This document shows positions 4,933 through 60,629 of a stretch of DNA of 64,000 bases, piece after piece. How positions within the stretch are numbered: position 1 is the first letter of the stretch; each line of letters starts with the position of its first letter. The position numbers were made by a program, and so were the translations under genes. Below the pieces are notes generated by a model that saw only the letters and a list, made by a program, of their open reading frames with translations, searched no databases and was not told where the DNA came from. Origin of the DNA: an uncultured Candidatus Saccharibacteria bacterium (GTDB lineage: Bacteria > Patescibacteriota > Minisyncoccia > Phycocordibacterales > CSBR16-119); the NCBI GenBank assembly GCA_964589975.1, contig CAZPVH010000003.1:5608-69607 (forward strand). Reading direction: 5' to 3'.

Positions 4933-5643
4933 CTATAAAAGTTTATCAGGATTTCCTTTTAAAATATGCTTGAGGCTCTCCGGCCCATGATTTAGATAAA
5001 GATCAAGAATTGATAGGTATGCGGCAAATTCTTTGCCCTTGAATTGCGGATACTCCGGATGCGTAAATTTCTGAAAGATGACTTTGATCCCCGCCTTGTC
5101 ATACTCTTCTGTTTTTAGATATGCTTTCGCCCCGCTTCCGGATAGATACGTATCGGCGCCGCAGACCTTGCATATTTCGAGTGTCACGTCGGTACCACCT
5201 TTTGCCTTTCCCGACAGCGACAACTCAGAGGCTCTCTTTATCTCTGTTTTTATTCCGAGCTTTTCTTTCAAGGCCAAAATCAAATCTAAGTTAAAATCAG
5301 CCAACTTCTCGTGTTTTTTAGCGTAATGGTTTTCCAAAAATTCTAGCGTTTTTGGCGCGTGTGGATGTTTCGCATAATTCTGTCTAAGTGTTGTGAGGTG
5401 CTTTTTGATTATCGGACTCTGCCAATTTATCCTTATATCGCTAATCCTTGCATCCGATGAGTGCTTAAGAAGTGGAATGGTGAGCCAAGTTGGTTTTCCG
5501 GAGGCCAAAATCTTATTCCTATTTTGAACGTTATTTTTTTCAAATTGAACGGTGTCTAAAATAACAAAAACGTCAGCCAAATGCATCTTGTGAAAAAATC
5601 CTAGCCAAGGAAAGGCCTCTGGCTGATGGATGGCAACTATCAT
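4933..5643 (-). CDS. WbqC-family protein (polysaccharide biosynthesis)
   Basis: N-terminus MIVAIHQPEAFPWLGFFHKM matches the WbqC-like family signature. Confidence 0.75.
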   Translation of the reverse strand: MIVAIHQPEAFPWLGFFHKMHLADVFVILDTVQFEKNNVQNRNKILASGKPTWLTIPLLKHSSDARISDIRINWQSPIIKKHLTTLRQNYAKHPHAPKTLEFLENHYAKKHEKLADFNLDLILALKEKLGIKTEIKRASELSLSGKAKGGTDVTLEICKVCGADTYLSGSGAKAYLKTEEYDKAGIKVIFQKFTHPEYPQFKGKEFAAYLSILDLYLNHGPESLKHILKGNPDKLL

Positions 5644-6314: not shown

Positions 6315-6378
6315 AAAATCAAGCCTATTTCTTAAAAACGTAAAGCAAGTATGGGAAGTATAATTTCGCGGTAGACAA

Positions 6379-7053
6379 TCACCTGGAAAGAAACCTCTCT
6401 AGCTTGTTCCGCGAATCAGCAAGAAACCCCAAGTATTTAGCACCTGTAATTTTCTCCGTATCGCTAATAATAAAGCCGGGGTTACCTTTAAAAATATTCC
6501 CGCCCCCAACAACCGATTCTTTCGCAAATCTATAATCCCCCGTAAATGATTTCCAAGTTCTATCTTTCATCCTAATCTTCGGTGAGAAAAAATAACCAAG
6601 CTTGTTGTGTGATGAGAACGCTAAAAGCCCGCCCGGCTTTAATTTTTTTGTCGCTTCCTGAAGAGCTTTGTCACGCATTTCTTTCAAATCGATATAGTCT
6701 ATTGAATTCATAGGAAACAGAACGACATCAAAACCCTGGTCCGGTAGAAATGAGAGGTCTGATGCATCACCTTCGCAGAATTCTAGGTCTCTGAATTTTT
6801 CCTGAGGAAAATTATTTTTTGCAATCTCGGTCAACTTTTTTGAGCGATCAATGCTTAAAACTTTATTCCCGTAAAGCAATAAATTTACAGGTACGCGGCC
6901 GGCCCCACCACCCAATACCAAGACGCTCTTCCCTTTTAAGTCATATCTATCGATCAGATATTTTTCCGGATTGTTCAGACTCTTTACTCGTGTCGTGTTC
7001 GCCGCGTATTTCGCGACAACTTGGTCAGACTCGTAAAGCTCTTCATTATTCAT
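6379..7053 (-). CDS. class I SAM-dependent methyltransferase
   Basis: VLVLGGGAGRV glycine-rich SAM-binding motif. Confidence 0.7.
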   Translation of the reverse strand: MNNEELYESDQVVAKYAANTTRVKSLNNPEKYLIDRYDLKGKSVLVLGGGAGRVPVNLLLYGNKVLSIDRSKKLTEIAKNNFPQEKFRDLEFCEGDASDLSFLPDQGFDVVLFPMNSIDYIDLKEMRDKALQEATKKLKPGGLLAFSSHNKLGYFFSPKIRMKDRTWKSFTGDYRFAKESVVGGGNIFKGNPGFIISDTEKITGAKYLGFLADSRNKLERFLSR

Positions 7054-19874: not shown

Positions 19875-19900
19875 AACGCCGCGCCGTAAGGCGCGGCGTT
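19875..19900 (-). terminator. intrinsic terminator following element A
   Basis: aacgccgcgccgtaaggcgcggcgtt perfect hairpin followed by a UUUUCCC tract on the minus strand. Confidence 0.65.
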
Positions 19901-19910
19901 TCATTCCCCT

Positions 19911-20001
19911 CTCCGCGAAGCAGAATATTTCTTTTTTGAGTCCGAGGACCTAGTGCGAAGACACGATCCCGCAGGACGAGAAAAAGAAATGTTCTGCGGA
20001 G
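19911..20001. repeat. conserved-core stem-loop element, copy A (core 19942-19975)
   Basis: Core CCGAGGACCTAGtgcgaagacaCGATCCCGCAGG inside an imperfect ~20-bp inverted repeat; it abuts the stop of the minus-strand RNase gene and precedes the hairpin terminator at 19875-19900. Confidence 0.7.
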
Positions 20002-21396
20002 CTAAAACTCCAGTTCTACTACCTGATTCTGCTCCGGCACGATAGCCGTAACGCCCAAATTATCGTGAAGTTTCTGCGCCAAGAACATTGAAACGCGTGG
20101 TTCACCCATGACCACAAATGCTTTTTTGAGCGTGTCTTTAGTGCTTTCGATGAATTTAACCAAGTGAAACGAATCTTTGTGTCCGGAGAATCCTTGGATC
20201 ATCACGACTTTCGCTCGAACATGCACGCGCTCGAACATAATCATAACCTGGTCTCGGCCTTCTTGGAGCATGCGTCCTAGAGTTCCCGGCACCTGATAGC
20301 CAGTGAGGAGGAGCGTCGCATTCGGATCCCCCAAATAATTCTTTTCATGATGAAGAATCCTTCCGCCAGAAGACATCCCAGAGCCAGCCATGATGATCTT
20401 TGGACCCGGAACTTTTAAAATATTTATTGACTCTTGAGTAATTTCCGTCTCCTTGAGCCCCGGGAAGCTAAAAATGTTGTCTCCCTGACTGATCTGCATC
20501 CGGACTGTTTCTTTAAGGAGATTTAGATGCCTTCTAAATACATCTGTTATACGAATTGCGAGCGGAGAATCAAGGAATATCTTTATTTGTGGAATCTGCT
20601 TCGATTCGACGAAATTATTGAGTTCGTAGAGAAATTCTTGGGTGCGTTCAAGTGAAAAGATCGGCACCATCAAAACGCCCTTCTTGTTATATGTTTCGAG
20701 TATGACTTTTTTCAAATTCTCTTCCCTCTCTGCGCGCTGCTCGTGATTTCTGTCGCCATAAACCGACTCCATGACAATATATTTGGCGTCGGTAATTTCT
20801 TCCGTATCAGCCAAAAGTGGCGACGGCGAGTTTCCAAGGTCCCCTGTAAAGACAATCTTCGAGCCATTGTATGTTATTTCAGCCATGACAGACCCGAGGA
20901 TATGTCCGGCGTCTTTGAAAAATACCGACAATGGCCCGAGGTGAAAATCCTCGTGATACTCATGCGTTTCCCACATATGATCAATCTTGGAGAGCACAGA
21001 TGTTCCGTACATTTCGCCGAGATGATACTTCGGCGCGGATTTCGAGTTTGCCAAAATATGCGCGGTGTCTGCAAGCATGACAGCCGTCAGATCGCGTGTA
21101 GCCGCGGTTCCGATAATTCTGCCCTTGAAGCCCTCATAAACAAGCTTAGGAATGCGGCCGATGTGATCTTCGTGAGCGTGCGTGACGATCAGTGCATCGA
21201 TATCTGCCGGATTATATGGGAATGGCTCCCAGTTATCGAATTCGGCCAGATGCTCACCCTGAATAAGGCCACAGTCCACAAGAAGACGAAACGGCTTCTC
21301 CCCCGATTCCGGCATCGTTTCGAGCAAAAAATTTGCGCCGGTCACCCAGCCCGCGCCGCCCGCAAAAGTAAGTTTTAATTTCTTAACGATGGTCAT
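20002..21396 (-). CDS. MBL-fold metallo-hydrolase, beta-CASP family ribonuclease (RNase J/CPSF-like)
   Basis: HxHxDH motif (VTHAHEDHIG), followed by beta-CASP-like and RNA-specificity regions. Confidence 0.8.
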   Translation of the reverse strand: MTIVKKLKLTFAGGAGWVTGANFLLETMPESGEKPFRLLVDCGLIQGEHLAEFDNWEPFPYNPADIDALIVTHAHEDHIGRIPKLVYEGFKGRIIGTAATRDLTAVMLADTAHILANSKSAPKYHLGEMYGTSVLSKIDHMWETHEYHEDFHLGPLSVFFKDAGHILGSVMAEITYNGSKIVFTGDLGNSPSPLLADTEEITDAKYIVMESVYGDRNHEQRAEREENLKKVILETYNKKGVLMVPIFSLERTQEFLYELNNFVESKQIPQIKIFLDSPLAIRITDVFRRHLNLLKETVRMQISQGDNIFSFPGLKETEITQESINILKVPGPKIIMAGSGMSSGGRILHHEKNYLGDPNATLLLTGYQVPGTLGRMLQEGRDQVMIMFERVHVRAKVVMIQGFSGHKDSFHLVKFIESTKDTLKKAFVVMGEPRVSMFLAQKLHDNLGVTAIVPEQNQVVELEF

Positions 21397-24608: not shown

Positions 24609-24657
24609 TTTATATCTTCATAAACTTATCCATCACTTCCTTCTCTACCTCATCTCT
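24599..24657. repeat. direct repeat, copy 2: authentic 3' end of the ATPase gene
   Basis: Partner of 23348-23399; the two copies bracket a ~1.2-kb cassette containing the two small secreted-protein genes at 23490-24559. Confidence 0.7.
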
Positions 24658-27339
24658 CGGTCGTCCATACTTGAGGAATGAAAGTTCTTTGAGAGAGTCG
24701 ACAATATCTGGATTTCCTGCTGGTAAGTCTTGTGTACGAATATTGAATGGCTTAACTGGCGTACCGTCGACGAGCATGGACACATACGCATTACGGTTAT
24801 CTAGCTTCATGATGTCTTGAACGGTAAAGACTGGGTCCAAACGCTTCTGCAAAATCTCCGCATCTTCGGAACTAATACGGAATATTGCCATCGAACCAAC
24901 GTTACCGAGTACGGCATTTCGAATATCGTCCGAGAGTTGTGACAAATACTGGTGGGCAACATTAAGACCGAGCTTGTATTTTCGTGCTTCAGAGAGAATC
25001 GAAGAAATAGATGGGGTGGTGAAATTCTGAAACTCGTCTATGTAGAGATAAAACGGTGGAAAATTTGCGCCGTGCGAGTCGGCACGAGAAAGTGCTGCCA
25101 TTTGGATCTTTCCTACCAGAATGAGACCTAAGAGGTTTGCATTGATATCTCCAAGTCTTCCCTTCGAAAGGTTTACCAGTAAGATTTTCTTGTTATCAAT
25201 AATCTCGCGGAAATTAAAGCTTGATTTCTCCTGAGCGATAATTGGACGCATAATTTCGTTAGAAATAAATGTGTCGAATTTGGACGTAATATACGGAACG
25301 AAGTTCTCTAGTCCTTGCTCACCTGTAGTCGCTTCAGCGGTTTTCCAGAATTGCTTGATGATTGGGTTCGTACAACGTTCTAGCTTCATATCACGGAATT
25401 TCTTGTCAGAGAGAACACGACCAATTTCAAGAATAGTATTACCTGTGGACGGATCAGACATCACAAGTCCGGCAGAATTCTTGAAATACTGCTCGAAAAG
25501 TGGTCCACCGGCGGTCTTCATATCAAAGAGCTGACTAAAAATACCGAGGAGTTCGTTAATCACAAGCGTCTTCTGTTCCGGACGCTCTGGATCAAACTCG
25601 AGCATATTGAGGCCCATTGGCCGCGCAGTTGAGGCTGGATCGAAATAAATGACGTCATCAATGCGATGTTTTGGGATATAAGAAAGGATTTTCTGGATGT
25701 CGGATCCGTGTGGATCTATGTAGCAAACACCGTCACCCCGCTCGATATCCTGACGAATCATGTTCATCATAATACCGGTCTTACCAGTTCCAGTCTGGCC
25801 GATAACATAAAAATGCCTCATGCGATCGAGCTCCTGGAGGTAAATATCGGTATCAACTCCGCGATGCGTGTTGATACCGATTTGAACGCCGCCACCAACC
25901 ATATTGAGCGGCGCAGACGCGGAACCTGCTTTTGACTCTTTGAGCTCTGGTGAAGACGCAAGACCTACCGGGAAATGCACGAGCGTCGAGAGTTCTTTGA
26001 AATTGAGCGGCAAGGCCGAAGCTTCGGTCGGCAGGCGGAATGAAAATGAATGGAGAAACTGATCCAAATGCTTGTCGTCGACCTTTTTAAACTTGAGACT
26101 GTTTGAGCTTGGCTTCTCGAACTGAGAGAACGCCGATTCAATGTTTGCAATTATCTCGCCTGTTCGAATGGCGCTATCTGACGAAGCCACGACACGGATA
26201 TTCGCCAGCATGATGGTCGACTTGATCTTCTCGGTAATATTTTCGACAGCTTTGTCGTCGATATCCTTTTCTTCCTTCTCTTCTGTCTTCTTGGGTCCTT
26301 TCCAAAGCATTGTTCCAAAGCTCTTTAGCTCTTTCTTTACGTCGCCAAACTCATCCAATATATGCTTAAGTTTTTCGCCTTTTTTCACCTTATCAAGATA
26401 TCCGGAGAATTTCTTAATGTATCTGTCCCCCGCCGGCATGATGACGAACTGGAGCGCCGCGCCTTCTTTCGTTTTATCAAGCTTCGAGAAGGCGTTCAGG
26501 ATCGTATTCATCGGATCATGATCAAACTCATCGTGAGTTTTGAGTGGAAACACCTCATGATCGCCAAACTCTGCCGATGCCGCCATAATCGAGCCGCCTG
26601 AGTTAAAGACATTGTAATCATTCGTAACTTCGGTGATCTTTGCATTCTTGTAAAATGACAGTATCTGTTTTTCAAGCAGAGTTTTTCGATCTTTTGGAAT
26701 GGAGACATAAAAAACGATTTCCGGTGAATCATGTGATACGGCAATCTCAATTGTGAAATATTGCTTATATTTATTATTCTCCCCATTCGATATGGTCTGC
26801 ATACCGGCATAAAACTGTTCCATAGCGGAAAGAAATTCTTTGAAAGTTTTTTCTTTCTCTTCTGAAGCTGGCAGAGTTACTTCAAAAAGCGCGAGGTTGA
26901 GAGATTTCCATTCTGGCGAACTCTCGGAGAGCCCGGGGACTTGATGAGAAGTGTGGAGGAACTGAATCAAGAATCTGTGAAAGTCGTCCTCAAGATGCGG
27001 ATTATGCATACGGGAAACGATATCCATGGTGTTTTTTATACCGTGCTCTAGGAGTAGGCCATAAAGCTCTTCGATTTGACTATCATGTTCTTCTGGCTTG
27101 AGGGCCAGGACCATGCTTTCGGCCTCTTTCTCTGGCACACGGTAGCTTTCATGAAGCACTTCGGCTGAGTCGGCTTTTTTGTACGCGGAAAGCGTCTCAT
27201 GAGTCACTTCTTCGCGAGATTTTTCAAGCTTAGCACCAGCGTTCACTCTCTCTTGTTCGGCAACTTTCTCGCGCAAATAAGCGAGCTCCTCTTCAGGAGT
27301 CTTGAACGCGCCTTTTTCCATGATCTGAGCCCCTTCCAT
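24610..27339 (-). CDS. large P-loop ATPase of the FtsK/HerA/TraG(VirD4) superfamily with ~430-aa N-terminal domain of unknown function
   Basis: Walker A GQTGTGKTG followed by DPHGS; Walker B LYIDEFQNF; downstream AHQYLSQL motif as in type-IV coupling/HerA-like ATPases; no TM segments. Confidence 0.7.
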   Translation of the reverse strand: MEGAQIMEKGAFKTPEEELAYLREKVAEQERVNAGAKLEKSREEVTHETLSAYKKADSAEVLHESYRVPEKEAESMVLALKPEEHDSQIEELYGLLLEHGIKNTMDIVSRMHNPHLEDDFHRFLIQFLHTSHQVPGLSESSPEWKSLNLALFEVTLPASEEKEKTFKEFLSAMEQFYAGMQTISNGENNKYKQYFTIEIAVSHDSPEIVFYVSIPKDRKTLLEKQILSFYKNAKITEVTNDYNVFNSGGSIMAASAEFGDHEVFPLKTHDEFDHDPMNTILNAFSKLDKTKEGAALQFVIMPAGDRYIKKFSGYLDKVKKGEKLKHILDEFGDVKKELKSFGTMLWKGPKKTEEKEEKDIDDKAVENITEKIKSTIMLANIRVVASSDSAIRTGEIIANIESAFSQFEKPSSNSLKFKKVDDKHLDQFLHSFSFRLPTEASALPLNFKELSTLVHFPVGLASSPELKESKAGSASAPLNMVGGGVQIGINTHRGVDTDIYLQELDRMRHFYVIGQTGTGKTGIMMNMIRQDIERGDGVCYIDPHGSDIQKILSYIPKHRIDDVIYFDPASTARPMGLNMLEFDPERPEQKTLVINELLGIFSQLFDMKTAGGPLFEQYFKNSAGLVMSDPSTGNTILEIGRVLSDKKFRDMKLERCTNPIIKQFWKTAEATTGEQGLENFVPYITSKFDTFISNEIMRPIIAQEKSSFNFREIIDNKKILLVNLSKGRLGDINANLLGLILVGKIQMAALSRADSHGANFPPFYLYIDEFQNFTTPSISSILSEARKYKLGLNVAHQYLSQLSDDIRNAVLGNVGSMAIFRISSEDAEILQKRLDPVFTVQDIMKLDNRNAYVSMLVDGTPVKPFNIRTQDLPAGNPDIVDSLKELSFLKYGRPRDEVEKEVMDKFMKI

Positions 27340-27340
27340 C

Positions 27341-27452
27341 CCGTTAGTGACAGGTCGCGGTCGTCATTCCGCCACCAGCAATTAAATTTATAATCTTGGT
27401 CATAGTTTCTTACATATGCATTTTACCCGCACGCGACCGCGGTCACTAACGG
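27341..27452. promoter_or_regulatory. long imperfect inverted repeat flanking a 68-nt AT-rich spacer, immediately upstream of the 909-aa ATPase start codon
   Basis: Arm 1 at 27341-27363 (ccgttagtgacaggtcgcggtcg) and arm 2 at 27432-27452 (cgcgaccgcggtcactaacgg), which contains the 10-bp palindrome GACCGCGGTC. Arm 1 begins 2 nt after the start codon on the minus strand. Confidence 0.6.
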
Positions 27453-27558
27453 GATCCATATGGATAATATTGTAACATGAAAGAAAAAGACCCTTGTTGC
27501 CAAGCAAAGCGAAAGAGCCGGCAGAACCGGCTCTTAAGTAAACTTCTTACACAGGCCT

Positions 27559-28598: not shown

Positions 28599-29189
28599 CT
28601 ATTTTATAGCTTCAACTTTTGCAATGATTTCTTTATGTACGTCTTCTATAGATTGCTCGCCGTTTATCTCGTAGAAATCATAATCCTTGTTGTCATAGAA
28701 GTACGCCATGGCTGGCACAACATTCCAGTCGAACCATGAAAGACGAGACTTGATGTACTCATCGGAGTCATCACTTCGTCCGCGCGACTTCAATCGGTCA
28801 AACGACCATTGGTCCGATGTCTTAATAAAGAAAACAATCGGTTTGCTGAGTTTGAAGAATTTTACGGCGGAGTCGAGGACCGGGGCCTCATCAGGGCGGC
28901 GACAAAGACCGTCGAGGATAAGATCGCGCTTGCCGTCGAATTTGTTTACCAAGTCCCCTGTCCAAAGCCAGATCGGGAGGAAAACCGGCATAAGTCCGCC
29001 ATGAGAGAGAACCTCTTTTGTCATCTGGGCGGAGTAATTTGACTGATCGATAAAGTTCCTGAATTTCTGTCCGGTTTCTATATAAATAGGCTCAACCCCC
29101 TTTTTATCAAGGATATATTTTTTCAGCATTTCAGCCTGAGTGCCCTTGCCGGAGCCGGAACGGCCGAAGAAGATGAATGTTTGTTGCAT
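28599..29189 (-). CDS. adk: adenylate kinase-family nucleoside monophosphate kinase
   Basis: P-loop GRSGSGKGTQAE typical of adenylate kinases; adk-map gene order. Confidence 0.75.
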   Translation of the reverse strand: MQQTFIFFGRSGSGKGTQAEMLKKYILDKKGVEPIYIETGQKFRNFIDQSNYSAQMTKEVLSHGGLMPVFLPIWLWTGDLVNKFDGKRDLILDGLCRRPDEAPVLDSAVKFFKLSKPIVFFIKTSDQWSFDRLKSRGRSDDSDEYIKSRLSWFDWNVVPAMAYFYDNKDYDFYEINGEQSIEDVHKEIIAKVEAIK

Positions 29190-29244
29190 ACGGCTGATTA
29201 TAGCGGAAAAGGGCTAAAAACAAAGTGGCTTAAATATCAAGGAA

Positions 29245-29274
29245 AATGCCCCTCCGCAAGGAGGGGCATTTTCT
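29245..29274 (-). terminator. intrinsic terminator following element B (downstream of rpsR)
   Basis: aaaatgcccctccgcaaggaggggcatttt perfect hairpin with flanking U-tract. Confidence 0.65.
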
Positions 29275-29290
29275 TAAATCATCTTTTGGT

Positions 29291-29370
29291 GGAGCAACAT
29301 GCCCATTTTAGAATCCGAGGACCTAGCGTAGCGATCCCGCAGGATTATAAAATGGGCAAATTGCGGAGCG
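29291..29370. repeat. conserved-core stem-loop element, copy B (core 29315-29343)
   Basis: Core CCGAGGACCTAGcgtagCGATCCCGCAGG inside an inverted repeat; it lies between the rpsR stop (29375) and the hairpin terminator at 29245-29274. Confidence 0.7.
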
Positions 29371-29374
29371 TTCG

Positions 29375-29575
29375 CTATTCAGCGACGAATGGAAGGAGTC
29401 CCATGATCCTGGCGCGTTTGACGGCGAGAGAGACTTTCTTCTGATTCTTTGAAGAGAGCTTGGTCTTTCGCTTACCCATGAGGCGTGCAGAAGCATCCAA
29501 GAACTGCTTCAGAATCGCAGTGTCCTTGTAGTCGATATGCTTTATATTGTTCGATGAGAAATAATCTTGCTGCAT
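29375..29575 (-). CDS. rpsR: 30S ribosomal protein S18
   Basis: S18 signature; rpsF-ssb-rpsR context. Confidence 0.85.
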   Translation of the reverse strand: MQQDYFSSNNIKHIDYKDTAILKQFLDASARLMGKRKTKLSSKNQKKVSLAVKRARIMGLLPFVAE

Positions 29576-29585
29576 AAATTAATAT

Positions 29586-29657
29586 TAGTGAATAGTGGTT
29601 AGTGAATAGTGTCTAGGAACTATCTTCTAATCACTAGAAGCTAGTCACTAGTCACTC
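29586..29657. repeat. compound direct/inverted repeat in ssb-rpsR intergenic region
   Basis: Tandem TAGTGAATAGTG-like units on the left and CACTAG units on the right form an imperfect palindrome between the ssb stop and rpsR start. Confidence 0.55.
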
Positions 29658-54760: not shown

Positions 54761-55444
54761 ATGGCGCTATCAGACAAAAGGATATTGGAAGAAATGAAGA
54801 AGGGCGATATCATCATCGACCCGTTTATCAGAAAGAATCTCGCGACTTCGAGCTATGACCTCACGCTCGGCGAATTCTATTTCCGCGAGCAGCCACCAAA
54901 GTACAACCACAATCTCTTTAACATCTGGAACCAAGAGCACGTTGAACATGTCTGGGGCAAGAAGGCCTTTAAGGCCGAAAAAGCGAGCGAGGTATTCAAG
55001 AAATATAACTTCAATTACGTCGGCATAGACCGGAACGACAGAGTGATCCTGATCCGACCTGGAGAAACGATTTTGGCCCACACAAACGAGTTTATCGGTG
55101 GCAAGAATCATATCACAACCATGATGAAAGCCCGCTCATCCATGGGCCGAAGCTTCATAGAGGTTTGTAAGTGCGCAGGCTGGGGCGATGTAGGCTATGT
55201 GAACCGATGGACAATGGAAATTACGAACAATTCAAAAAATTACGCCATCCCCCTCGTTGTCGGCCGCCGCATTGCCCAACTCGTTTTCTTCGAGACCGGA
55301 CCGATCCTTGATCGCGACTATACCAAGGCCGGAAAATACTCGACTTCAACTGATCTAAAGGTCTTGAAGAAAAAATGGAAACCAAGCGATATGATCCCAC
55401 GGCTTTACAAAGACGCGAATGGAGAGAAGAAGAAAAAGAAATGA
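54761..55444 (+). CDS. dcd: dCTP deaminase family protein
   Basis: Dcd/dUTPase-like jelly-roll motifs (RSSMGRSFIEV...GW.G....E). Confidence 0.75.
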   Translation: MALSDKRILEEMKKGDIIIDPFIRKNLATSSYDLTLGEFYFREQPPKYNHNLFNIWNQEHVEHVWGKKAFKAEKASEVFKKYNFNYVGIDRNDRVILIRPGETILAHTNEFIGGKNHITTMMKARSSMGRSFIEVCKCAGWGDVGYVNRWTMEITNNSKNYAIPLVVGRRIAQLVFFETGPILDRDYTKAGKYSTSTDLKVLKKKWKPSDMIPRLYKDANGEKKKKK

Positions 55445-55932
55445 TTTCCATTATTTCTTCCATTCAGATGAGCGACCGAGGCCTCGGCTACGAGAACGAC
55501 CTCCTTTTCAAGATCCCGGAAGACCTCAAGCGCTTCCGCGATCTGACCATAGGACATCCGGTCATCATGGGTCGACGAACCTGGGAATCCCTACCACTAA
55601 AATTCCGCCCGCTCCCCGGAAGAACGAATATAGTCATTACATCAAAAGACTTAAGTGCTAGCCCGGAAGTCATCGTCTGCAAAAACGTTGAAGACGCCGT
55701 GAGTGAAGCTAAAAAGCTCGATAAAGATTTCGCCATCATCGGCGGCGCCATGGTTTTCAATAAGACGCTTCCCTATACCAACAGGCTCCTTCTAACTGAA
55801 ATAGAGGGTAACAAGACATCCGACACCTTTTTCCCGGAATTCAAAAATGATTTCGTGCTAGAAAATTCCGCCGGACCATTTGAGACAGCTGAAGGAATAA
55901 AATACTGGTTCAACGACTACAAAAGAAAATAA
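55441..55932 (+). CDS. folA: dihydrofolate reductase
   Basis: Start moved to Met at 55441 (ATGA overlap with dcd); DHFR motifs IMGRRTWESLP, IIGG. Confidence 0.85.
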   Translation: MISIISSIQMSDRGLGYENDLLFKIPEDLKRFRDLTIGHPVIMGRRTWESLPLKFRPLPGRTNIVITSKDLSASPEVIVCKNVEDAVSEAKKLDKDFAIIGGAMVFNKTLPYTNRLLLTEIEGNKTSDTFFPEFKNDFVLENSAGPFETAEGIKYWFNDYKRK

Positions 55933-55956
55933 TTCCCTTTCTCTCCCTCTCCTCAG

Positions 55957-56043
55957 CAAAAGAAAAAACACATTTCCGAATCCCGAGGACCTAGTGACGT
56001 TGTCACGATCCCGCAGGGTGAGGAAATGTGTTTTTTCTTTTGC
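55957..56043. repeat. conserved-core stem-loop element, copy C (core 55983-56017)
   Basis: Core CCGAGGACCTAGtgacgttgtcaCGATCCCGCAGG inside a perfect 21-bp inverted repeat (gcaaaagaaaaaacacatttc / gaaatgtgttttttcttttgc); between convergent dfrA and rplK stops. Confidence 0.75.
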
Positions 56044-56046
56044 TTC

Positions 56047-56478
56047 CTACTTCACCTCTATGCCCATCGATCGGCATTGCCCTTCAACAATCTTCATGGC
56101 GGCTTCGATAGTGTTTGCTGAGAGATCCTTCATCTTTAGAGTCGCGATTTCTTCAACCTTGGCCCTACTAATCGTTCCAGCCTTCTTTGTGGCGTTTTTT
56201 GATGATCCCTTGTCGATCCCAGCGGCCTTGAGGATTAAGGGGCCAGTAAGTGGGGTTTTGGTATCGAATTCGTAGGTCCTATCCTCGAATACACGAAGTT
56301 TGACTGAAACCTTGCCCTGACCGATCATATCCTTTGTTCGATCGTTGAATTCTGTAACGAAAACACCAATAGGAATACCAGCCTGACCGATGGTAGGACC
56401 AATAGGCGGAGCTGGCGTTGCGCGCCCGGCTTCGATCTGCATTTTAACGTTTTTTACTACTTTCTTTTTGCTGGCCAT
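56047..56478 (-). CDS. rplK: 50S ribosomal protein L11
   Basis: L11 N-terminal PPIGPTIGQ motif. Confidence 0.95.
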   Translation of the reverse strand: MASKKKVVKNVKMQIEAGRATPAPPIGPTIGQAGIPIGVFVTEFNDRTKDMIGQGKVSVKLRVFEDRTYEFDTKTPLTGPLILKAAGIDKGSSKNATKKAGTISRAKVEEIATLKMKDLSANTIEAAMKIVEGQCRSMGIEVK

Positions 56479-58281: not shown

Positions 58282-58340
58282 GAGCGTAGGTGTTGTTTGT
58301 CTTTAATCTACTCCTCCCCCGCTGCTTTTGCAAGCATGAG

Positions 58341-58364
58341 AAAATCCGCTTCACAGCGGATTTT
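58341..58364 (-). terminator. intrinsic terminator following element D (downstream of fusA)
   Basis: aaaatccgcttcacagcggatttt hairpin followed by a UUUUCUC tract on the minus strand. Confidence 0.65.
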
Positions 58365-58377
58365 CCTCTTTCTCTAA

Positions 58378-58462
58378 GCGGAGCAAAATCTGAATTTTCT
58401 GAACCCGAGGACCTAGCAAAGCGATCCCGCAGCGGTGAAGAAAATTCAGATTTTGCGGAGCG
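58378..58462. repeat. conserved-core stem-loop element, copy D (core 58405-58432)
   Basis: Core CCGAGGACCTAGcaaagCGATCCCGCAG inside a 17-bp inverted repeat; it lies between the fusA stop (58467) and the hairpin terminator at 58341-58364. Confidence 0.7.
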
Positions 58463-58466
58463 ACTT

Positions 58467-60629
58467 TTATTTCGCTGGCGTGCCTGCGCGCTTCTTGATG
58501 ATCTCTTCGGCAACGTTCTTTGGCACAACATCGTAGCGGAGGAATTCCATTGTGAAGTTTCCGCGGCCGGCCGTCATCGAACGGAGATTATTGATGTAGC
58601 CGAACATTTCAGAGAGTGGTACGACAGCTTTAATAGCCTGGACCATTCCTCGGTCTTCGGTACCCTCAACGAGTCCTCGCTTTGAAGCAATGTCGCCTGT
58701 GATGTCTCCCATGTTTGCATGAGGGGCCACAACTTCAACTTTCATCATAGGCTCAAGGATAACTGGATTCGCTTTTCGCGCAGCTTCCTGGAAGGCCATG
58801 GAGCCGGCGATCTTGAAGGCGATTTCTGAGGAGTCGACATCGTGGTATGAACCGTCGTAAAGCTCGACGCGAACATCAGTAATTGGATAACCAGCCACCA
58901 CACCGCGCTGCATAGATTCGATAATACCCTTTTCGACAGCCGGGATAAATTCGTTCGGGATGACGCCTCCTTTGATGGCGTTAACGAACTCGAGCCCGTC
59001 TTCACGAGTCGTGTTCTTTGGCAAGTCTTCAACAGGAATACTGTAGTCGATTGGAGAAAGGCGAATTCTGACATGGCCGTACTGACCGCGTCCGCCGGAC
59101 TGCTTAACGTATTTGTGATCGACTTCGGCATTGCCTTTGATGGTTTCGCGGAAAGCGACCTGCGGCGCGGAAGTGTTCGCCTCAACGGAGAATTCCCTCT
59201 TCATGCGGTCAACGAGGATTTCCAAGTGTAGTTCTCCCATACCAGCGATGATGGTTTCGCCAGTTTCAGGATCAGATGATACGCGGAATGTTGGATCTTC
59301 GGCGGAGAGACGCGACAGGGCAAGGCCCATTTTCTCCTGATCAGCCTTAGTTTTCGGCTCGATTCGCATGGAAATAACCGGCTCAGGGGCGATGATTCGT
59401 TCAAGGATGATCGGCTTGTCTTCATCGCAAAGAGTGTCAGATGTCGTTGTGTCTTTGAGGCCGACGGCCGCGGCAATTTCACCGGCGTAAACAACCTTTA
59501 CCTCTTCTCGTTCGTTGGCGTGCATACGGAGGATTCGGCCAATACGCTCTTTAGTATTTTTTGTCGCATTGTAAACATATGATCCGGCTTCTAGAGAACC
59601 CGAGTAAACGCGGATGAAAGTGAGCTGGCCGACGTATGGATCAGACTGAAGCTTGAACGCGAGCGCGGAAAGAGGCGCTGTGTCAGAAGGCTCCCTGGTG
59701 ATAGTCTCTCCGGTATTCGGATCAATTCCGTGAGTCATCGGGATATCGAGAGGCGATGGCAAATAGTCGACAACGCCGTCAAGGACGAGCTGAACGCCTT
59801 TGTTCTTCAAAGCTGATCCCGCAAAAACTGGGAAGATAGCATTATTGATGACAGCCTTTCGTAGGACCTTCTTTAGATCTTCGATTGGAAAATCTGTCTT
59901 GCCATCAAGATACTCTGACATCATCTTCTCGTCATTTTCGACGATTTTTTCTAGGAGTTCCATATGGAATTTCTCCGCCTCGGTCTTGTAAGCTTCAGGG
60001 ATTTCCATTTCAATAACATCTTTGCCCTTGTCGCCTTCGAACCTGTAGGCCTTCATCTTTAGGAGGTCGATGACAGCTTCGAACTGGTCTTCTAGACCGA
60101 TCGGGATCTGAATTCGAACGGCTTTCTTCGTGAGGCGGGCTAGGATAGACTCGTATGATTTCTCAAAAGAGGCTCCGGTTCGGTCGAGCTTGTTGATGAA
60201 GCAGAGGCGCGGAACATTTCCTTCGTCGGCATAGCGCCAGTTCGTTTCTGACTGAGGCTCAACGCCGGCCACGCCGTCAAAGACGACGACTGCGCCGTCG
60301 AGAACGCGGAGGGATCGCTTAACTTCGATCGTGAAGTCGATGTGTCCCGGGGTGTCGATCAGGTTAAAGCGAGTCTTCTTCGTCGTGTCGCCTTTCGGCA
60401 TGTAAGTCGGGCTCCAGAAACAAGTTGTGGCGGCGGAGGTAATGGTGATTCCCCTCTCTCGCTCCTGCTCCATCCAGTCCATGACCGTGTCGCCCTCGTG
60501 AACTTCGCCGATCTTGTGGGACATTCCGGTATAAAAAAGCACGCGCTCAGATGTCGTGGTCTTACCAGCATCGATGTGCGCGATGATTCCAAAATTTCTA
60601 ACTTTCTCCAGAGGATAATCCCTTCCCAT
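58467..60629 (-). CDS. fusA: elongation factor G
   Basis: G domain [14 protein letters not shown]; full EF-G length. Confidence 0.95.

Follow-up and report, generated by a model that had tools for sequence, protein, structure and literature searches.

The element that follows rpsR in the 64-kb window (the window being the whole stretch of DNA that was analysed) is a member of an apparently undescribed family of 3′-end hairpins found in a clade of Candidatus Saccharibacteria. It is one of four copies in the window and is called copy B here. Within positions 29150–29600, read on the minus strand, rpsR lies upstream and adk (28599–29189) downstream of it. The rpsR coding sequence (29375–29575, minus strand), taken from the open reading frame (ORF) list, matches the ribosomal protein S18 family (Pfam PF01084 Ribosomal_S18, E = 5.7e-19) and ends in a UAG stop codon at 29375–29377; ssb and rpsF are located upstream of it, and public assemblies contain a protein 100% identical to the window S18. 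Copy B as a whole occupies 29289–29369 (minus strand). Its 5′ flank, GCUCC (29365–29369), belongs to a GCTYCGC pattern seen around copies A, B, and D and in about 20 related copies, and the complete GCUCCGC motif (29363–29369) begins 6 nt past the rpsR stop, its final GC opening the stem. Both arms of the long stem (P1 plus P1b) were identified from the RNA fold and from inverted repeat I4: the 5′ arm, GCAAUUUGCCCAUUUUAUAAUCC, at 29342–29364 and the 3′ arm, GGAUUCUAAAAUGGGCAUGUUGC, at 29294–29316. The folded RNA has a predicted energy of −29 kcal/mol (z-score −5.35). Enclosed by the arms is what we term the class-1 core, UGCG-GGAUC-G[CUACG]C-UA-GGUCC-UC (29317–29341), delimited by a covariance model, by invariant positions, and by pair counts, and made up of an internal loop that is asymmetric, a 5-bp segment that does not vary, a bulged UA, and a small hairpin of variable sequence; the model matches it with 62.6 bits (E = 5.7e-16). 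The element closes with UCCAC (29289–29293), which by sequence is a degenerate form of the UYC-GC flank.

A preliminary description of this DNA had placed a core, CCGAGGACCTAGcgtagCGATCCCGCAGG, at 29315–29343, and the sequence is indeed present there on the plus strand. The position therefore stands, but the strand has to be reversed: the gene sense is minus, and the plus-strand core is the reverse complement of the likely RNA. The arms named in that description (29301–29314 and 29344–29357) pair at 13 of 14 positions, and they reach further than it had proposed, to 23 nt each (29294–29316 and 29342–29364) with 87% complementarity. The proposed order of rpsR stop, element, and terminator was also recovered, the stop being at 29375–29377 and a separate intrinsic-terminator-like hairpin being called on the minus strand at 29242–29273 (terminator scan; inverted repeat I24); this hairpin has a 4-nt loop above 14 perfect pairs and ends in a U-rich tail. 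Between 29150 and 29420 the terminator scan reported two sites where 0.3 were expected, the second lying within the hairpin just described, and it did not call copy B itself, which lacks a G+C-rich stem with a direct U-tract. Two ORFs that overlap the element (29181–29444, plus; 29323–29496, minus) are mechanical, and a coding role for them was rejected, the lengths of the copies differing out of frame.

Using a covariance model built from the core, we found exactly four copies in the window, all in one shared orientation; a search for the core with up to three mismatches found one second copy there. Copy A (19915–20002, minus; core 19944–19973, 58 bits) follows a β-CASP RNase gene (20002–21396), and its flank overlaps the G of that gene's stop codon. 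Copy C (55955–56044, minus; core 55985–56015, 57.2 bits) lies 2 nt past the stop of rplK (56047–56478) and has a 23-bp perfect stem without the GCUYCGC flanks. Situated between convergent rplK and folA, it has no separate terminator and is the sole hairpin at that position. Copy D (58378–58461, minus; core 58407–58431, 53.2 bits) follows fusA (58467–60629) and carries both GCUCCGC flanks. In the region of copy C (55375–56478), rplK, encoding L11, closes an operon with nusG, and the next gene is the convergent folA, not rplA. A separate terminator-like hairpin comes after each of copies A, B, and D, so that the common architecture first proposed for these three copies holds for the order of stop, element, and hairpin; a terminator was called on the gene strand for copy B alone, the hairpin after copy A (about 19876–19903) not being called by the simple scan and that after copy D (58340–58365) being called on the plus strand only. 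Chance is excluded as the source of the copies by three results: the 12-mers CCGAGGACCTAG and CGATCCCGCAGG occur four and five times in the window against 0.12 and 0.33 expected, the four elements are the four longest inverted repeats of the 64 kb, and the fold z-scores of the window copies range from −5.3 to −9.3. The GCTYCGC motif itself is not enriched elsewhere in the window (24 found, 19.8 expected).

The placement raises the question of whether the element is simply an unusually long intrinsic terminator, with an A-run (GCAAAAU) and a U-run (AUUUUGC) in its outer stem and the core as a passenger in the apical loop. It shares with intrinsic terminators its gene-end location and an A-tract/U-tract stem base like that of the genome's ordinary terminators. 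Moreover, copy C is the only hairpin between rplK and folA, and in two related loci described below (L027 and L029) the element is the sole structure between rpsR and the adk promoter; an "empty" version at a third locus, L025, resembles a plain terminator. However, the scan does not call copy B, whose 3′ arm ends in AUGUUGCUCC with the U-run paired within the stem. In the element generally a G-C clamp closes the U-run and UYC-GC comes next, and a core of 25–31 nt replaces the small loop of a terminator. The terminator reading also leaves the invariant core and the UYC flanks unexplained. Since ordinary terminators exist in this genome and a separate hairpin stands after copies A, B, and D, that after B being called as a terminator, the element appears to be additional to the terminator, and we regard the terminator reading as distinctly unlikely. 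An anti-terminator pairing between the 3′ arm and the downstream terminator was considered and rejected as not general, amounting to 6 nt in copy B, to an A/U-run in copy D, and to nothing in copy A.

Aligning 17–23 copies gave a consensus that, in the RNA sense, reads from the stop codon and 0–10 nt through the 5′ half GC-UYC-[GCAAAAY...16-28 bp stem]-(YUCR)-CC(C)-UGCG-GGAKC-G[2-5 bp hairpin]C and on through the 3′ half UA-GGUCC-UC-GG(G)-(AUUC)-[...stem...RUUUUGC]-UYC-GC. The core measures 25–31 nt, and 19 of its positions are invariant in 17 copies. The long stem is near-perfect and AU-rich and varies between copies in sequence and length while its pairing is kept. Its 7-nt base, GCAAAAU/AUUUUGC, is common to most copies and absent from copy A, L010a, and the copy at the β-CASP site of L027; the remainder of the arms varies. 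Covariation supports the helices next to the core. Among 23 model-aligned copies, one pair of the 3-bp helix adjoining the core is CG in 9, UA in 8, AU in 2, and GC in 1, and the second pair of the apical hairpin is CG in 12 and UA in 10. The covariation score was 0.262 compared with 0.103 in shuffled alignments, a value reached by none of 500 shuffles, and it exceeded all slid controls. The GGAUC/GGUCC segment shows no covariation: changes in it, including U to G in six copies, lose pairing. Because it never covaries, this segment may not be a helix and may instead be conserved as sequence. The apparent direct repeat GCUYCGC can be read, as a suggestion, as an outer 2-bp GC/GC helix with a symmetric 3 × 3 UYC/UYC loop below the stem; in L003b the outer flank pair is AC/GU instead, and in L029 and L023 it is GU/GC or GC/GU. 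A pseudoknot or switch between flank (UYCGCA) and core (UGCGGG) found no support: the core is retained in copy C and L004, which have no flanks, and the variant cores of L024 and L032 are uncompensated.

The outer stems of 24 elements contain 414 Watson–Crick pairs and about 10 defects (1–2 G:U in the gene sense, 4 A·C, 3 other mismatches, and 2 bulges). So perfect a stem is unusual for selection at the RNA level only and suggests mismatch correction within the palindrome at the DNA level. The ordinary terminators of the window have equally perfect stems, so stem perfection does not discriminate between readings.

The orientation of the copies is the main argument for a role at the level of RNA, or at least one coupled to transcription. 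In all of the first 13 copies of the window's type, the stop of a long ORF in the same sense lies 11–26 nt before the core match, and five further copies lie behind DUF8128 or β-CASP genes on the same strand. The locus L003 contains two copies about 100 nt apart that point towards each other, each behind its own gene, which argues against an orientation set by the direction of replication. As every copy is in the sense of the gene upstream, orientation follows transcription. Within the core, one pair reads U:G on the gene strand but would be a mismatched C·A on the other; the counts of G:U against A·C as a strand test (1–2 and 4) are uninformative.

The stem starts 3–11 nt past the stop in nearly all copies, including those behind the β-CASP RNase gene, rpsR, rplK, and fusA, and in several copies the flank overlaps the G of a UAG stop. 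This closeness would suit a translation brake coupled to termination, in which the ribosome must melt the stem to reach the stop and stalling lowers the output of the upstream gene. Liang, Rudd and Deutscher reportedly found in 2015 that E. coli REPs within about 15 nt of a stop codon lower upstream gene output by stalling. Plain terminators in the window, however, abut stop codons equally closely, so the spacing may reflect genome compaction; in the lineage of L014 and L015 the same-sense stop lies 90–110 nt before the core, and a brake leaves the conserved core unexplained. We therefore think a translation brake very unlikely. A recoding signal of the SECIS or PYLIS type was rejected on other grounds: UAG, UAA, and UGA stops all occur before the element, and element lengths are out of frame.

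In total we identified 23 copies of the core, with none expected by chance and every one from Candidatus Saccharibacteria. When one genome per species was scanned for the exact pattern, 12 loci were returned, of which the seven with a flanking stem all come from Candidatus Saccharibacteria metagenome-assembled genomes (MAGs), and a metagenome scan yielded seven loci, four of them real (L014, L015, L017, and L018). Matches without a flanking stem were dismissed as chance; they came from three metagenome contigs and from genome contigs of Akkermansiaceae, Chloroflexi, Actinomycetota, and Acidobacteriota, and the loci set aside in this way are L002, L005, L006, L008, L011, L013, L016, and L019. 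A BLASTN search of the element against phages and plasmids gave no match, and a pattern scan of viral contigs gave one match without a stem, taken as chance. The genes upstream of the copies encode S18, L11, EF-G, β-CASP RNase, DUF8128, ABC ATPase, UvrD, ComM-like, NYN, SLOG, fn3, and HTH proteins. Given this diversity the element is a general gene-end feature, and a tie to translation genes was rejected, copies also following the ABC ATPase, UvrD, ComM-like, NYN, SLOG, fn3, and HTH genes.

We detected no match in the window to Rfam 15 at the gathering threshold, and ARAGORN found no tRNA or tmRNA there. When the Rfam search of the element was relaxed to E values up to 10, only weak matches to microRNA precursor, potC, and leader-type models overlapped it (8.9–20.8 bits, against thresholds of 44–95); the highest-scoring weak matches fall on the neighboring terminator. 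In literature naming Saccharibacteria or Patescibacteria we found no description of the element. The element bears only short resemblances to the sarcin–ricin loop, SRP domain IV, and Y RNA; mimicry of them was rejected, the strand being wrong (the sarcin–ricin-like GAGGACC is on the plus strand) or the defining loops absent, with the Rfam models silent. Another reading is a small ribozyme that cleaves itself and so trims the mRNA at its 3′ end. In its favor, the core is small, multicopy, and near-invariant, and its conserved nucleotides are concentrated in one internal loop and one bulge that separate helices of variable sequence. Yet no Rfam ribozyme model matched at E up to 10, only about eight conserved nucleotides are unpaired, and there is no sign of a tertiary contact, the possible flank–core pairing failing in variant copies. 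We consider the ribozyme reading highly improbable.

To compare the rpsR site among relatives, nine lineages were retrieved through S18 homologs, as pieces of 8–20 kb. The class-1 core is present at this site in the window and in L022, and again in L027/L028, whose S18 is 84% identical and whose stem shares UGCC(C/G)AUUUU with copy B. L024 has a decayed core with a G+C-rich insert, in a stem that shares AUUUUAUAAUCCUG with copy B and is recognizably orthologous. L025/L026 and L029/L030 have the same flanks and a long perfect stem around unrelated inner structures, and the L025 element holds a nested mini-copy. L031 carries a third conserved inner module (ACCAGAAUA...) without flanks, L032 has the flanks around a 6-bp hairpin followed by a terminator, and L023 and L033 have a plain terminator only. 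L023 and L024 have identical S18 yet differ in presence or absence of the element at both the rpsR and the β-CASP sites. The stem segments shared by the window, L027, and L024 indicate that the site was inherited, with compensated changes. The preliminary description had made conservation of its arrangement in related genomes a matter on which the proposal depended, and the outcome is divided: the same core persists in L027/L028 and, decayed, in L024, whereas other inserts, a mini-hairpin, or a terminator take its place in L025, L029, L031, L032, L023, and L033. The rpsR arrangement is thus inherited in part and subject to fast turnover, with a modular design of a common chassis and exchangeable cargo.

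The third cargo, ACCAGAAUA-[hairpin]-UUUCUUCYGCCUCG-[hairpin]-CGGCRAGC, occurs after the β-CASP gene in L027 (19121–19234) and after rpsR in L031 (about 5456–5560), enclosed both times by long perfect stems; GCUNCGC flanks are present at one of the two sites and absent from the other. In L007 a tandem second copy of the element (6337–6430, minus sense) lies about 95 nt downstream of the copy at 6526–6603. Its 21-bp stem is G+C-rich, and its core, UGCGAAAGCG...CUAAGUCCUC, is degenerate, scoring 23.6 bits with the GGAUC/GGUCC pairing lost; this second copy is probably decaying.

Directly behind the rpsR terminator, a TATAAT box (29197–29202, minus strand) was read from the sequence 7 nt 5′ of the adk start codon (29187–29189). 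In the window and in L022, L024, L025, L027, and L029, adk has TATAAT 6–8 nt before its ATG and no Shine–Dalgarno sequence, which suggests, at the level of sequence, a leaderless adk transcript that starts from a promoter of its own. This box was not among the calls of the simple two-hexamer promoter scan. Because adk has its own TATAAT box, read-through from rpsR into adk is less important than the preliminary description had assumed. A different insert is found at another gene start in the window: at 27338–27455 (minus sense), 114 nt with perfect 12-bp terminal inverted repeats, CCCGTTAGTGAC...GTCACTAACGGG, stand directly upstream of the start codon of DUF8128 (24610–27339), with a TACAAT box just upstream. 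This insert is flanked by ATGGAT and ATGGAA, so that the start codon appears duplicated. Its inverted repeats recur in L003 (646–727), L024 (7421–7542), L029 (15805–15925), and L027 (9354–9472), in the last case at the start of ssb with ATGTAT duplicated. Judged from these sequences, the insert looks like a small mobile element landing at leaderless gene starts.

The turnover at orthologous sites is what would be expected under the strongest rival explanation, which is that the element is a selfish or neutral palindromic DNA repeat in the mould of REP/BIME elements or miniature inverted-repeat transposable elements (MITEs), persisting where insertion is harmless, with arms kept matched by template switching and with no RNA function. 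Close relatives differ in its presence at the same sites. The arms are near-perfectly Watson–Crick paired, essentially without wobble pairs. A recognizable stem consensus, GCAAAAUCUAAAUUUUC, recurs in many copies together with the constant flanks, behind unrelated genes and in different genomes, which suggests spread by copying. To this can be added the mini-copy nested inside the L025 element and the separate terminal-inverted-repeat element which, with its site-specific duplications, indicates that small-element mobility occurs in the same genomes. Against a purely selfish origin, every copy lies in the sense of its upstream gene, the convergent pair of L003 included, and it is the asymmetric center that is most conserved, not the arms, the opposite of what REPs and MITEs show. 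The flanks are alike at every site and so are not ordinary target-site duplications; that interpretation was rejected, the same 7-mer occurring at all sites and around the nested copy and showing no enrichment elsewhere. The GTAG/CGTC tag is absent, no transposase is linked to the element within the 64 kb of this genome, and a second lineage has the core within a covarying hairpin of greater size. On balance we hold a selfish or neutral repeat to be possible and somewhat unlikely.

The larger hairpin just mentioned was found in L014, L015, L017, and L018, which belong to another Saccharibacteria lineage as judged by the named homologs of the neighboring gene. In these loci the class-1 core sits at the tip of an irregular hairpin of about 170–190 nt (L018 3400–3590, plus; L015 about 1985–2130, plus; L017 about 975–1100, plus; L014 about 110–270, minus), located 3′ of ORFs and in the same sense. 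Its inner stems covary between loci (AUACGACAGAC/GUCUUGUCGAU compared with GAAUUACAAAGU/ACUUUGUAAUU), and the larger L018 RNA had no match in Rfam. The hairpin also contains a conserved CAAUCAC bulge and is preceded by a small hairpin, GACACUUUUUAAAAAGUGUC. From this re-use, the core behaves as a portable RNA module. A stronger form of the idea, that the class-1 core is a portable module read by a dedicated trans-acting factor or itself catalytic, within a lineage-specific post-transcriptional system that places interchangeable cargo on a common hairpin chassis, seems to us rather unlikely. Some of the competing readings are mutually compatible.

Other hairpin families are present in the relatives. 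One multicopy family shares the design of the element, with a variable A-tract/U-tract outer stem and a conserved inner CUGAAAG-UCCGUACUGUUUGAGG...GAGUUUACGGAC-CUUUCUGG; it occurs at L023 15102–15196 and 18352–18447, L024 5934–6028 and 9404–9503, and L025 10357–10457, and sits at places taken by plain terminators in the window, which has no copy of it. A further recurring intergenic hairpin, with the conserved stem CCCCACACCTAYTTTTT.../...AAAAARTAGGTGTGGGG, occurs at L027 17226–17306 and 19905–19974, L007 2062–2204 and 3414–3548, and L024 7260–7410 and was not seen in the window.

The explanation we prefer, tentatively and with somewhat less than even confidence, is that the element is a cis-acting hairpin of the 3′ untranslated region (UTR), whose duplex takes part in mRNA 3′-end processing or stability, whose core docks a specific factor, and whose evolutionary turnover is REP-like. 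The sense orientation, the covarying helices, the invariant asymmetric core, the placement between stop and terminator, and the re-use of the core lead us to read it as a 3′-UTR RNA; transcription through the element, its cleavage or protection, and the binding of a factor are steps that we infer. Copy B would be transcribed at the end of the rpsF-ssb-rpsR message from the minus strand. The RNA would then fold into a stem of about 23 bp with a UYC/UYC internal loop at its base and the 25–31 nt core as a cap. By analogy with REP-stabilized messages and the T7 RNase III signals, such a duplex may block 3′-exonucleases, and its length would also allow a double-strand-specific RNase to act on it. 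A putative trans-acting protein or nuclease would dock on the invariant core. Over evolution the family would be gained, lost, and remodelled at gene ends in the manner of REP/BIME elements.

REP/BIME elements of Enterobacteria and Pseudomonas often lie a few nucleotides past a stop codon, and as transcribed 3′-UTR hairpins they stabilize the upstream mRNA. Like them, the element is an extragenic palindrome present in several copies, four of them in the 64 kb and every one following a stop codon at the end of a gene, and it is gained and lost between relatives. REPs are described as having a conserved stem with a GTAG or CGTC tag recognized by a RAYT transposase (PMC3733652). In contrast, each of the four window copies has a stem of its own sequence and length, and invariance is confined to the core of the element; the ends read GCUYC|GC...GC|UYCGC, with neither GTAG nor CGTC at the foot of the stem. 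The element would work most like the gene-end hairpins of the REP/BIME type, with the pattern of conservation inverted.

In the T7 RNase III processing signals of the R1.1 type, an intercistronic or 3′ hairpin is cleaved in a loop, which leaves a protective 3′ hairpin on the upstream message. These signals have about two duplex turns and an asymmetric loop at the end of a cistron, to which the 23-nt arms, UGCG/UC loop, and upper helix of the element correspond; the likeness is one of layout (lower stem, asymmetric loop, upper stem), sequence similarity not being expected, and the element differs in being a cellular multicopy family with a much longer lower stem. Like the MITEs Correia, ERIC, RUP, and BOX, the element is a small noncoding intergenic repeat that forms a hairpin, and some bacterial MITEs are known RNase III substrates. 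In MITEs, however, the terminal inverted repeats are conserved and each site has its own duplication, whereas the ends of the element vary beyond 7 nt and its flanks are one motif (GCUYCGC) at nearly every site and around the nested copy as well. Integron attC sites likewise follow directly on ORFs and are hairpins that are defined by structure, vary in sequence, and have a short conserved motif at either end. The element has no RYYYAAC/GTTRRRY core sites, ending instead in GCAAAAU/AUUUUGC; it follows rpsR, rplK, fusA, and an RNase gene rather than cassettes, its conserved part is central, and its orientation follows transcription. By the features compared, it is not a REP, a MITE, an attC site, a terminator, or a member of an Rfam family.

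Saccharibacteria are reduced, epibiotic bacteria, and to our knowledge their RNA biology is almost unexplored. On sequence grounds the element makes a solid candidate, within a phylum that has received little study, for a novel repeat family or structured RNA motif. An invariant asymmetric core within freely varying stems is the reverse of the REP pattern and points to a specific reader, which may be a nuclease, an RNA-binding protein, or a catalytic RNA. Should the core serve for docking or cleavage, it would determine the way in which highly expressed messages, such as those for S18, L11, EF-G, and an RNase J-like enzyme, are finished or stabilized, and it would offer a compact handle for genetic tools. 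If the element is a selfish palindrome, it would still document an orientation-locked repeat family and a modular chassis-plus-cargo design, useful for genome annotation and for avoiding false gene calls.
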